Source of the DNA: Promethearchaeota archaeon
GTDB lineage: Archaea > Asgardarchaeota > Lokiarchaeia > Sigyniarchaeales > SOKP01
Assembly: GCA_048939995.1 (NCBI GenBank)
Contig: JBHLOY010000003.1
Location: 224,001 to 288,000, forward strand
DNA: 64,000 nt
Direction: 5' to 3'
The position numbers were made by a program, and so were the translations under genes. Under the pieces are notes generated by a model. It had not been told where the DNA came from. It did no database searches and was given only the letters and a program-made list of their open reading frames with translations. Positions 19,938-38,319 of the stretch are shown here, piece by piece; within the stretch, counting starts at the first letter, position 1; every line of letters begins with the position of its first letter.

Positions 19938-22900
19938 TCATTTTTCTGGTGATTTTTGAGAATAGTAAACATCTTCAAGGATTTCAAGGTATTCTATCAA
20001 TACTTTACTTGCTATAGATTTTTGTTCATATGATGTTTTAATGCCTCGTAAAAGATATTTGGGAAATATTAAATCTACATAGAAGTCAGATAAAAGAGCA
20101 TAATATTCATTATTAGCTTCATCGCGAAAAACAATCATCATATGATTCTCCCAAAGTAGTTTTAATGCCGTATACGGATCTTTTACTCCCTTTACTTTTA
20201 GCTTTTCTAATTCTTGTCTAGTTATTATTGAAGTTCTTAATAATCTCAATGTTAAATAAACCTGAGGATCGCTTAAAATTTTAACAACATTCAAATTATC
20301 TTCAATCGTAGGATGATAGCTTTGAAAGAATTCCTTAACTTTTTGTATATACTCTTTTTTAAATTGTTTTGGTAATCCCCGGCTAACAGGATTTTCTACT
20401 AAATTTATAGGAGGAACTCGCAACATATAGATGTCATTAATTAAAACAATTAATTCTGAAGGTAATCCCTTAATAGAAACCTGTTTTATAATACCCATCT
20501 TTAGCAAATCAGATAGAATAGCTTCTAAATCGACAAATGTCTCCATAAACTTATCTTTAAACCATATAGTTAACTCAGATTTGATAATTACTCCCATTTC
20601 ATTTAAATTTTCTATAATCATCCGCTTAGCTTCATCTTGATAGCTGAAAGCTAGTATTTCCTCATCACTAAGCGATGGATATAAGGATAAACGTCGGAAA
20701 TAAAATGGCATAAGTTGCTTATAAGAATCATCTTCAAAATTTTCTATGAGACCTCGAAAAACATCAACCAATCCTCCCTCATAAAGATCAGGATCATCGT
20801 CAAAATTTAAAATTAATAGAAGATAATAACCTTGTTCAGGTCCTGAATAGTAAGATAAAATGTTTGAAGTTTCAGTAGTTAACATTGTTATGCCTTTTTC
20901 TCCACTATATTCATGAGTACTATATACTTGCATACAAGTTTTTTCTGAAATTACAATTTTTTCTGGATATTTAGCTAAAATTTCTGTTCCAATTCGTTCA
21001 TTCCATCTCATGAGCGCCAATCCTATAGGATTTAATTCATGAACCTTCCCTATTTCACTGATTCTTCTTTGAGCTCTTTCGCTCTTTTTCACTTTTTCAG
21101 TTTTGATATTTAATATTTGACCTAGAGAAAGACCTACTTTATTCCATTTATGATTTACTTGTTGTACAATGAACTTTTCTTTATTGGGGTATAATAAAGA
21201 TTCCTCAATTGATTTCTGCTTTTTAATAGCTTTTTTCATAGCTCTTACTTTTCTTACAAAAACGGGTATTTTAGCACGGTGGTAAACTCTATATCCAACA
21301 AGACTTCCAACTATCGCAATCGTTGCTGCCACAATTAGTAAGAAATAGAAGGTTGGAAGCCCTGGAAAGATCTCTTCCATCTCAACGACAATTATAATAT
21401 CAAATTCTTGAGAGATATAATCCTCTTTTGTAATATTAATAGTTCCTGTAACTGTGGTAGAGGTGAAAAAGGCATCAATATTATCCGTATAGAAAGTAAA
21501 TGTGTAGGTACCATTCCCAATATACGTAAAATTGTACATATTACCACCTATCGTCAATATTACTGTAGCGTTAAGTAACCAACTATCTTGTTTTGTAGGA
21601 TCCGTTAAAATTAATTGTATTGGAACTGGATTGCCTTTCACTATACTTGTTCTTCTATTTTGGAAGTTATCGCTTAAAATAGGAGTCCCAATCTCTCGTT
21701 TGTTAATTGTTAAAAGCAACATTGCATTTTTACGATCATAATTATCTTTATCTAAAGCAATAATTAGAAGATATTCACCCACCATTCGTGATTGTGTATT
21801 AAAGTCTAAGATGTAAGTATTGTCTGAAGTTGTAATCATATTTTCTTGACCACTTTCAATTACATTACCTGCTTGATCATAGCGTTCCCAAAGATAATAT
21901 TGAGTTACTAAGTTTGTAATTTTATTTCCGCTTAAAGTATCCCTATATACAAATGTAAAATTAACCGTATCTTTAATGTAAATACTTTCAATTTTTCTGA
22001 AAAATTCTGAAGACTGGTTTAATAGGGTGGGGCGATTTAAAACATTTAATTTTAAATCTTTTATAGCTGAACTGAAATGGGCTTTTTGTGAAGTAAATCG
22101 TACAGTATATCGATCAGCATCAAGTAAAGACGTATCAATTGTCTTTAGGTAATATCCTAAGCTGGGATAATATGAAGTTGTTCCATAAATGGAAGGGCTC
22201 TCAACAACAACATATGATAAAGAGCCTATTGTTTCATATGATACTGTTCGTGAATATTTAATTGAAAATTGAAGCGTGAAATTTACCTGGAAACCAGTTT
22301 CAATAACTGTATGAAAGATTTGTTCTTTAGTGAACCCTCGTAGGGAAAAGGTTCCTATACCAAGAGTAAAATCAGATACCGCATACTTTTGTCCACCAAT
22401 GGTGATATTCATTGCTAAATATGAGGGGTGAAAATAAGTTGAACCACTTTTTATTTCTTTAACCCATAAAAATGCTTCGAGTTCATTCCAATGACTTTCA
22501 CCGGCGTCTACTTGAAAAAAACCTCCATTAGTGATTCCTGATTCTATTATCGTGAGATTAAGTGTTTCCAAACGGAGGTTCTGATAAAAACCTTGAACAT
22601 ATTCAACATAGATGATTGTATTAAAGATGATATTAGGCTGACTTTCAATTGTAAAAACAAATTTGTTGCCAATAGGATAGATGAGTCTATCATCGATGGT
22701 TAAGGAACCTGTTCCATTCGTATAACCATAATCTAGTGTATAGCTAAACCCTTCGTTTGTACTAACATTCAAGGAGCTCAAACTTGATAAATCTACAACA
22801 CTCCAATCAGAGGTGTTATAGCACTCAAATATCTCAAAACTGATGTTATTAATTGTCCAACCTTCCACTTCTGTTAAAATAGATATCTCATTACTAACAT

Positions 22901-36264: not shown

Positions 36265-38319
36265 TTGATCATTTTATTACAAGTGTATATTTATAGAGAT
36301 AAAAACTTACTTTATAAGAAGCAATTTGGAATAACTTCAGATGATTTAATCTTTGAGCAATTAATAGCGCCACTTATAGAAGAATCGCAAGCCTATGAAG
36401 ATGTTTTTTCTAAAGATTATTATAAATATCGAATATCATACACTTTAAAAAATGATTTTTTATTCTTATTTATCAATAGCTTAAATGACACTCTTGAGAC
36501 AATTAAAAAGGAATTAAATCGATGCATGGAGAATTTCATTGACTTAATTCAAACAGAATCTTTTAGCTTTGATGATGAAAAGAGTGTTGAAAAAATAGAT
36601 AAATTAGTTTTCTCAATTCAAAACAAATTCCCTCCAATAATATCTTTAGTTGGATACTCGGAAGTTGGAAAGACTACAATTACCAATCTACTCAGAACAA
36701 AAGATATTCCTATAGAAAGCAAACCCACTATCTCAGGAAATGTTGCTACACTGAAGTTGGGATACTTTTACTTTTTTATAAGGGATTTTGATGGTGATGA
36801 GAAAATTGGTTTCTTGTGGAATAATTTTATCAGGGGTAGTGATGCTGTACTTATAATTACAGATTCTACTTTAAAAAATGTAGAAAATTCAAAATTTTTT
36901 TTGACAAAAATTGAAGAAGAGGTACCATATGCAAATACTGGAGGAATAGGAAATAAACAAGATTTGGAAGAAGCTATAGAAGTTTCAAAAATCAGAGAAA
37001 TTTTAGGATTAGAGTCATATCCTTTGATAGCCATAGATTCAGATTATAGGCAAAAAATGATTTTAATTATTACAGAAATTCTGAAGATGCAACCAATTAT
37101 TTCACCCATAATCGATTTAGTTCTTGAAAGAGATAAATTAATTTTAAGCATTGAAGAAGCAATTAAGAATGAGGATTATGGAAACCTTGAAAATCTTCTA
37201 GTAAAAGCAATCGATATTTCTAAAAAATTGGGAGAAAATGCAGAACCTTTTTATGAAATTCAATTAAAAATAAGAGATCGGTTAGAAATGCTAAAACCGG
37301 CAAGAATTGGTTCAGAAATTCAAGCCCCAAGCCCAGAGATTCAATCTAGAAAATTATCTTTTTTAGAAAGGCGCCTAAAGATACTATTAAAAAATTACAT
37401 GGATGAACTTGAGAGTATGATCGCTGTGACTATTTGTGACAGAGAAGGACTAATTATAACCTCAGAGCGTAAAGGAGAGGCCGGAGATGAAGATGTATTA
37501 GGAGTAATAGCTGCTTCTGTTGATAGTTATATGGAAAGAATTAGAATGGAATTTAAGGAGGAAACAAATTTTTTTAATATCACTGCGACTAAAGACAAAA
37601 AATTTGCCTATTGCTCAATGGGGTTAAAATCAATTTTATTAACCGTCACAGATTTATCAAGTTCTGATACTGAATTAAGAATCTTTTCTGAGCATATAGC
37701 AGGAAAAGTTGAAATGATCATTGAGGGGAATGAGAAAGTATCTCTTGAAATACCTGAGATAGTAAAAACTTTGTCTAAAACTAAGGAAGGGAAAATTCCA
37801 GAAGGTGATTATTCATTAAAACTAATAGTTATTGGAGATTATGAAGCTGGAAAAACATCTTTAATATCTCGATTCGTAAAAAATCTTTTTAAAGAGAGTT
37901 ACCAAAGTACAATAGGTGTAGAAATTTCAAAAAAAGATGTAGAATTAGGCAAAAATACAAAAATAGATTTTGCTATTTGGGACGTTGGAGGCCAAGTGAC
38001 CCAAATGATTCCATATAGAAAAAGGTTTTATGAAGGGGCTAATTCTGCGTTTATAGTTATAGATCGAACAAATGAAGACAGTATAAATTCTATTCTAAAA
38101 TGGTATAATGAAATAAGCAAGTATATTGGAAAAAAAATTAATGTTATATTAATTGGAAATAAATCAGATTTAGAAGATCAAGTTGTTATAAGCGAAGAAC
38201 AAATTAAAAAGGTAGCAAATCAGTTAAATTTTCATTATATTCTTACTTCAGCTAAAACAGGCGAGAATGTTAATGATTCTTTTTTATATGTAGCTTATAG
38301 GTTTTTAGAATTAGTATAA
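36265..38319 (+). CDS. Longin-like + Arf-like GTPase + roadblock + Rab-like GTPase fusion
   Basis: GTPase 1: GYSEVGKTT, DFDG, NKQD; roadblock: AVTICDREGLII; GTPase 2: GDYEAGKTS, STIGV, WDVGGQ, NKSD, TSAKTG. Confidence 0.85.
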   Translation: MIILLQVYIYRDKNLLYKKQFGITSDDLIFEQLIAPLIEESQAYEDVFSKDYYKYRISYTLKNDFLFLFINSLNDTLETIKKELNRCMENFIDLIQTESFSFDDEKSVEKIDKLVFSIQNKFPPIISLVGYSEVGKTTITNLLRTKDIPIESKPTISGNVATLKLGYFYFFIRDFDGDEKIGFLWNNFIRGSDAVLIITDSTLKNVENSKFFLTKIEEEVPYANTGGIGNKQDLEEAIEVSKIREILGLESYPLIAIDSDYRQKMILIITEILKMQPIISPIIDLVLERDKLILSIEEAIKNEDYGNLENLLVKAIDISKKLGENAEPFYEIQLKIRDRLEMLKPARIGSEIQAPSPEIQSRKLSFLERRLKILLKNYMDELESMIAVTICDREGLIITSERKGEAGDEDVLGVIAASVDSYMERIRMEFKEETNFFNITATKDKKFAYCSMGLKSILLTVTDLSSSDTELRIFSEHIAGKVEMIIEGNEKVSLEIPEIVKTLSKTKEGKIPEGDYSLKLIVIGDYEAGKTSLISRFVKNLFKESYQSTIGVEISKKDVELGKNTKIDFAIWDVGGQVTQMIPYRKRFYEGANSAFIVIDRTNEDSINSILKWYNEISKYIGKKINVILIGNKSDLEDQVVISEEQIKKVANQLNFHYILTSAKTGENVNDSFLYVAYRFLELV

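Follow-up and report, generated by a model that had tools for sequence, protein, structure and literature searches.

Giant surface glycoproteins with longin/winged-helix tails encoded opposite a double small GTPase in a Promethearchaeota archaeon

Chains in which an N-terminal longin domain is followed by C-terminal domains form several complexes linked to small GTPases, namely GATOR1/SEACIT with NPRL2-NPRL3, FLCN-FNIP and C9orf72-SMCR8 (PMC12290439). The same order is found in the locus described here, which lies in a window of 64,000 nucleotides from a Promethearchaeota archaeon of the class Lokiarchaeia (assembly GCA_048939995.1, contig JBHLOY010000003.1, positions 224,001 to 288,000). It includes two tandem genes for giant surface glycoproteins, A and B, whose cytoplasmic tails carry the longin domain, and a divergent gene for a protein of 684 amino acids (aa) with two GTPase domains. 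NPRL2-like longins were catalogued in Asgard archaea by Liu et al., and there is an asCOG label 'HTH; NPRL2-like longin'. Asgard longin-Arf-like (ArfL) and roadblock-GTPase fusions, the two half architectures of the 684-aa protein, are also known (PMC4917890; PMC10933270; bioRxiv 10.1101/2024.02.28.582541). Matching Asgard small GTPases to their regulators by genome layout is difficult (Tran et al., PMC10933270), and the large surface proteins of Loki cells are unexplained (PMC9834061). The partners of the dozens of small GTPases encoded in Asgard genomes are unknown; this locus offers a match that comes from gene fusion and repeated linkage, and it ties a small GTPase to large Loki surface proteins.

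The best explanation of the data is that the locus derives from a pan-Asgard module, here turned into a single chain, that is composed of a surface glycoprotein, a longin/winged-helix adaptor and a longin-Arf-like GTPase. As predicted from sequence and structural models, the tail would be a membrane-tethered longin platform that docks a GTPase switch under a surface adhesin and operates by clustering, a reading to which we give about an even chance. The module is real, conserved and, in the literature searched, apparently undescribed. That literature, which most subscription papers lay outside, contained no paper linking NPRL2-like longins to surface proteins; with few subscription papers covered, it also contained none on DUF2341 in Asgard archaea or on an Asgard longin together with a transmembrane (TM) receptor and a small GTPase.

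Gene fusion and linkage across Asgard genomes

The last 367 residues of the tail correspond to a normally stand-alone protein, the core or adaptor, which was present in 179 of the 251 Asgard genomes searched. In several Asgard families, most of the genomes covered gave no match to it (72 of the 251 were negative in all), which is not proof of absence. Across Asgard archaea, the stand-alone core of ~367 aa is normally encoded beside such a surface protein, a longin-Arf-like GTPase or both. In Loki relatives, it lies almost always directly 3′ of the gene for a single-pass protein of 1300-2600 aa ending in the same juxtamembrane unit, and the two reading frames meet at TAATG, TAAAATG or in-frame TAA-ATG junctions with a GGAGG-like element within the last codons. 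Loss of one stop codon at such junctions would produce the fusion. All fused cores group in a single clade (100/97), which lies within the split cores of one Loki family in a tree where L061_3, from a 2655-aa gene cut by the locus edge, was counted as fused. The fusion arose in one event within this family, and A-type tails fall into one orthologous subclade, B-type tails into another. The split form is present in the same genome, where the gene for a 344-aa longin-Arf-like GTPase on contig C10 is divergent from a receptor-adaptor pair. A cultured species, Promethearchaeum syntrophicum, has the split surface protein-adaptor pair (QEE17837/QEE17836).

The fused GTPase has 28 full-length orthologues in the 135 genomes of the family. 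By coordinates, a fused receptor is head-to-head with 16 of them; 7 others face a receptor whose head is cut by a contig end or whose head alone was read, and 5 that start at or within ~500 bp of a contig end were left out as unassessable. A head-to-head receptor was found in 23 of 23 assessable orthologues, so that the synteny check proposed in an earlier note on this stretch upheld a conserved neighbourhood. Outside the Loki order, a longin-Arf-like GTPase gene lies within 3 kb, usually <600 bp, of 19 of 32 core genes, and a tail-bearing membrane protein within 1 kb of 12 of the 32. Examples come from Freyarchaeum, Jordarchaeales, Helarchaeota, Thorarchaeota, Baldrarchaeia, Atabeyarchaeum and Odinarchaeum, and full trios occur in two orders, TM-core-GTPase (L108, Atabeyarchaeum) and core-TM-GTPase (L116, a Thorarchaeote).

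These genes could be merely co-regulated neighbours with no physical link, since linkage within the family could be inherited synteny and receptors also occur alone. However, the linkage recurs in differing orders and orientations in at least eight other Asgard families, although longin-Arf-like genes are few per genome (five full-length matches in 3.75 Mb here). We regard co-regulation alone as the least probable of the readings weighed. The tie between the tails and the adjacent GTPase proposed earlier is a likely functional link, seen independently in split form in many Asgard families.

Other arrangements were observed in related loci. On C10 of the same genome (G000 C10:12001-30000, L001), two surface protein-adaptor pairs flank the canonical 344-aa GTPase, a layout repeated in L100, L101 and L103. 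A canonical longin-Arf-like GTPase gene lies downstream of A-type receptors in L077 (9996-14068) and L076 (2-6697), and in G084 the A-type open reading frame (ORF) is only ~550 aa long and has no ectodomain. The L061/L081/L102 region (G066 C9) contains five fused receptors of ~2650 aa bracketed by a fused GTPase and a stand-alone roadblock-Rab, and an ORF of ~286 aa recurs between the receptor and the roadblock-Rab gene (L062 16383-17243, L078 15290-16150, L080 13072-13929, L102 7321-8190). Distant adaptor paralogues adjoin tandem single-pass proteins of ~540-560 aa with a weakly similar juxtamembrane unit (L002 2395-6849, L003 1081-9437). Between adaptor and surface protein, Atabeyarchaeia and Odin-family loci encode a basic protein of ~140-160 aa, possibly a winged helix (L086 9304-9789, L087 8846-9265, L095 5876-6289), and in Freyarchaeia and Jordarchaeia loci a helical protein of ~110 aa follows the core-GTPase operon (L084 8217-8549, L088 11987-12325).

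Topology and fold of the receptor tails

Each giant protein begins with an N-terminal hydrophobic segment, has three DUF2341 and three LamG3 domains and a stalk rich in beta structure, and crosses the membrane once, by a TM helix near the C-terminus. N-glycosylation sequons number 43 (A) and 41 (B) before this helix and zero in the tails, and the lysine plus arginine content rises from ~6% before it to 14% after it, a distribution that fits an external head and a cytoplasmic tail. The earlier description of a large extracellular part, a C-terminal TM helix and an intracellular region agrees with both measures, the tail being ~450 aa long. The LamG heads are known by fold family from a profile match, and glycan binding is putative; in the stalk, an Atlas feature search yielded only Ig-like leads scoring <0.9. 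A and B share 63% identity overall in a mosaic pattern (heads 23-58%, stalk mostly 82-94%, tails 56-59%), which suggests that the stalks were homogenised by gene conversion.

The tail was modelled with AlphaFold2 from an alignment of 126 sequences (pLDDT 88.5, pTM 0.88). In tail numbering, the model starts with three juxtamembrane helices and a linker, which lead to a longin domain (88-200); two winged helices follow, at 207-290 and 338-407, with helices between them and terminal helices after the second, so that both folds read into the tails before are present on the predicted structure. The longin domain matched SEA complex chain 8adl_S (Z 11.7, root mean square deviation 2.8, 122 residues aligned) and GATOR1 chain 8fw5_B (Z 11.5, 3.0, 119 aligned), scores tied with those of VAMP7 (Z 11.6) and a Loki longin; AP and TRAPP longins gave Z 9-10. 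The winged helices matched archaeal regulators at Z 9.1 and 8.5. With the whole tail, the Foldseek search that had been suggested ranked GATOR1/SEA chains first, weakly (E 6e-4 to 1e-3, TM score ~0.2); Atlas NPRL2 gave a TM score of 0.31 and DENND1 a weak match (E ~0.008 over ~190 columns), and the C-terminal part models as winged helices. No Pfam or NCBIfam family matched the tail, including the NPRL2/NPRL3 families PF06218/PF03666, and a PDB profile search returned one winged helix-turn-helix (wHTH) protein only, PH1932 (second wHTH, E 0.0035). On the model, the tail is NPRL2/3-like in layout and at most a candidate member of that family.

In the earlier note, the two paralogues pair through their longin-like tails and pass an extracellular glycan or cell-contact signal on to the adjacent GTPase. 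In its strict form, this model makes tails A and B an obligate NPRL2/NPRL3-like heterodimer acting as a ligand-controlled GTPase-activating protein (GAP) or guanine nucleotide exchange factor. The ranking of the GATOR1/SEA chains favours this model, as do the separate A-type and B-type lineages, with which mixed dimers are possible, and the recurrence of pairs in five genomes. In addition, the first longin hairpin, W-D-E-R-I-G-T, has an invariant W and a G in 123 of the 126 sequences, and its W-D-x3-G spacing equals that of the C9orf72 motif W33-D34...G38-P39 without the Pro (PMC12290439). R2296 in this hairpin is R in 112 of 126. Nonetheless, the residue after the hairpin G is T, V, A or M and essentially never P, so that the GP motif is replaced by GT or GV, and the alignment shows no Arg in the beta4-beta5 loop, the presumed position of an arginine finger. 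GATOR1-type GAP chemistry is therefore unlikely as judged from these residues. The two tails are also 58% identical over their length. Opposite the GTPase, a lone receptor stands in G085, G110, G113 and G124, a pair in five genomes, at least three in L060 and an array of five in G066. This variation led us to reject a fixed receptor pair and makes an obligate A/B pair unlikely; the heterodimer model as a whole is improbable.

Slightly less probable still is a tail that acts as a membrane-tethered or protease-released transcription factor. The match of the second winged helix to PH1932 and of both to archaeal regulators points in this direction, and databases label Jordarchaeial cores 'winged helix transcriptional regulator'. 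However, the recognition helices are acidic/hydrophobic (net -1.3 and -1.8), the wings range from neutral to acidic, and a net charge of -13.6 was found for the core. Taken by themselves, and not against a set of DNA-binding wHTHs, these values speak against DNA binding. The juxtamembrane unit has a basic charge.

The double GTPase and its predicted docking

The 684-aa protein comprises a longin, a degenerate Arf-like domain, a helical hairpin, a roadblock and a canonical Rab-like domain, and has no C-terminal Cys. Its N-half is 39-43% identical to two stand-alone longin-Arf-like paralogues and its C-half 56% identical to a stand-alone roadblock-Rab. Family scores were 1e-45 for Ras, 3e-29 for Arf and 2.6e-6 (E) for Gtr1_RagA, and the best PDB match of the Rab-like domain was Rab1 (E 7e-32). 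The full-length model is poor over the roadblock (pTM 0.51, roadblock region pLDDT <50), and G domains took up the results of its fold search, leaving the longin and roadblock without a structural score; topology and paralogy identify the latter as roadblock-like. Of the longin-GTPase-roadblock-Rab fusion described earlier, the two G domains, the N-terminal longin topology and the roadblock-like segment stand; a further feature is the degeneracy of the first of these G domains. In a quick tree, the fused GTPases group in a single clade (SH-aLRT 97).

G1 and G4 of the first G domain are retained across 42 orthologues. In its G3 motif, however, the W is replaced by R in 40 and the Gln by Asp in 41, this copy included. 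The switch-I Thr, present in this copy, is kept in 7 of the 42. Other homologues keep both WDFAGQ and PTITG (66-67 of 74), and motifs G1-G5 of the second G domain are invariant in 41-42 of the 42 orthologues. The pattern suggests that a pseudo-GTPase dock, the first G domain, has been linked in one chain with a Rab-like switch that is active. In L070 (4808-6728), L080 (3975-5528) and L081 (7070-8719), the orthologue calls are short at the longin end (517-549 aa), by start-codon choice or erosion.

A Rag identity was considered and rejected: the roadblock precedes and belongs to the Rab-like half, and the scores of the G domains for Arf and Rab are much better than the one for Gtr1_RagA. The analogy with Rag GTPases drawn in the earlier note is not sustained by these scores or by the paralogy of the roadblock-Rab half. 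An Arf/ArfR identity was discarded because the longin stands in place of the defining N-terminal amphipathic helix. A longin followed by an Arf-like G domain is the combination by which Asgard longin-ArfL fusions are recognised, and the N-half has it, an assignment made by architecture and not by clade placement with reference sequences.

For the tail and the GTPase N-half, the predicted complex reached a score of 0.36 and the best control 0.01, and runs agreed in at least 82% of contacts with partner pLDDT of at least 80. In calibration, the mark was reached by 58 of 80 solved and 2 of 110 mismatched pairs; at 0.60 or under, it was reached by only 7 solved pairs and by both mismatches. The complex prediction proposed earlier thus separates from its control but falls in a weak score range, and the model weakly supports binding of the N-half by the tail.

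In the proposed mechanism, the tail longin would act as the membrane-tethered platform, and the longin-Arf-like half of the 684-aa protein would bind to it. This half, now a nucleotide-binding dock, would carry in the roadblock-Rab-like half, the working switch, which would be brought to the inner membrane face wherever adhesin heads engage a surface or a partner cell. Each receptor chain could be its own unit or a member of interchangeable oligomers, and duplication would diversify the LamG heads on a common stalk. Regulation would most likely be by recruitment and clustering and not by an arginine-finger GAP reaction. Several observations weigh against this platform reading. The 23 orthologues are kin, from three genera of one family, and not independent; fused receptors with no GTPase neighbour exist (the third fused copy of the same genome, on C17, L063/L082 and L083); in G124 the roadblock-Rab alone faces the receptor (L078); and the weak complex score may reflect generic longin-GTPase likeness.

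The direction of signalling is a separate matter. The system could be a ligand-regulated single-pass receptor, in which LamG heads bind a partner-cell surface and the nucleotide loading of the Rab-like domain changes through the tail longin and the pseudo-Arf dock; we consider this possible but doubtful. Equally tentative is inside-out sorting or positioning, in which the GTPase switch and longin adaptor would place or anchor the adhesin (e.g. on protrusions) in an Arf/adaptin- or MglA/MglB-like manner, the surface protein being cargo. Adaptin longins bind cargo tails, and the tail longin matches are tied with trafficking longins. Ectodomains vary freely among relatives and the tail is conserved, and the core-GTPase operons of Freyarchaeia and Jordarchaeia loci lack an adjacent membrane protein. 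Against this, a reusable cargo adaptor would gain little if it were covalently fused to a single cargo or if each cargo had an adaptor gene of its own, and both situations are seen. Overall, inside-out positioning appears to fit the data nearly as well as outside-in signalling.

If the platform reading is true, the coupling of cell-surface contact to Arf/Rab-like switches via longin domains predates eukaryotes. If the ligand-regulated reading is true, an archaeal receptor-to-small-GTPase pathway came from a module present early in Asgard evolution. The locus thereby offers a link from membrane to GTPase that can be tested in prokaryotes closely related to eukaryotes: the P. syntrophicum pair and the compact core-GTPase operons of Freyarchaeum and Atabeyarchaeum open binding and localisation to direct study.

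Locus features and comparison with known systems

The ORFs of the two tandem proteins and the divergent 684-aa protein, with the gap between them, lie exactly where the earlier note had placed them (Table 1). The true start of gene A is probably the ATG at 27917, and the intergenic region may be a control region shared by both sides. The three genes of the earlier trio are real, but a coiled-coil gene had been overlooked. In 13 related loci, a homologue lies beside the gene for the GTPase, in 7 of them co-oriented with it and in 6 convergent, and its product is a probable fourth component of the locus. Elsewhere in the window, a membrane protein that contains a long tandem repeat rich in His and Asp (16741-17535, minus strand) is encoded directly upstream of an SPFH/Band 7 gene (15480-16649, minus strand); the two resemble an NfeD-SPFH pair with a possible metal-binding insert.

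Table 1. Features of the locus, in window coordinates.
Feature	Position	Strand	Remarks
Giant surface glycoprotein A, 2664 aa	19938..27932	-	ORF call; architecture as in B
A: longin-wHTH core	19950-21029	-	
A: TM helix	21294-21350	-	Residues 2195-2213
Giant surface glycoprotein B, 2651 aa, copy facing the GTPase	28024..35979	-	Surface-protein gene and longin-wHTH gene fused
B: two winged-helix domains	28162..28764	-	Recognition helices acidic/hydrophobic
B: longin, residues ~2287-2399	28783..29121	-	Acidic; conserved W-D-x3-G hairpin
B: basic three-helix juxtamembrane unit	29203..29361	-	Surface-protein C-terminus in split relatives
B: TM helix	29392..29448	-	Residues 2178-2196
B: beta-rich glycosylated stalk	29455..32694	-	Ig-like from weak leads only
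B: head, three DUF2341 + LamG3 (ConA-like) units	32695..35832	-	
AT-rich divergent intergenic region	35980..36264	.	285 bp, 17% GC
684-aa double GTPase ORF	36265-38319	+	
684-aa protein, N-half	36265..37290	+	Longin ~5-120, degenerate Arf-like G domain 121-275, helical hairpin 276-342
684-aa protein, C-half	37357..38319	+	Roadblock-like segment ~365-490, canonical Rab-like G domain 515-684
233-aa coiled-coil protein gene	38494..39195	+	Directly 3′ of the GTPase gene

As proposed, the mechanism resembles that of eukaryotic longin-GTPase platforms. GATOR1-type longin GAPs are the best structural neighbours of the tail, and C9orf72 shares its hairpin spacing. Unlike in GATOR1, the tail is covalently anchored in the membrane under a 2100-aa ectodomain, has GT or GV for GP and no Arg in the beta4-beta5 loop, reaches a whole-chain TM score of only 0.2-0.3, and has neither a DEPDC5-like partner gene nearby nor a fixed pair. 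For Loki genomes, the longin plus HTH architecture already figures in the asCOG data of Liu et al., under an asCOG that may be the tail family; their main text mentions no surface-protein link, TM fusion or pairing with a longin-Arf-like GTPase.

A sensor, a roadblock protein and a Ras-like small GTPase are encoded together in the actinobacterial G-protein systems or conservons CvnABCD (PMC13343842; PMC13621833) and in Myxococcus MglA/MglB. Unlike in conservons, the sensor side is here a LamG adhesin with a longin-wHTH tail, and the locus proteins scanned had no Pfam match to a sensor histidine kinase or DUF742; the likeness is one of logic, homology being shown for the folds only. Rag/Gtr proteins share the presence of a G domain and a roadblock in one chain, but here the roadblock precedes a Rab-like domain. 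The closest likeness in the GTPase is to the Asgard ArfL and roadblock-GTPase fusions, both of which are shared as halves and here are joined in one chain with a degenerate Arf-like domain.

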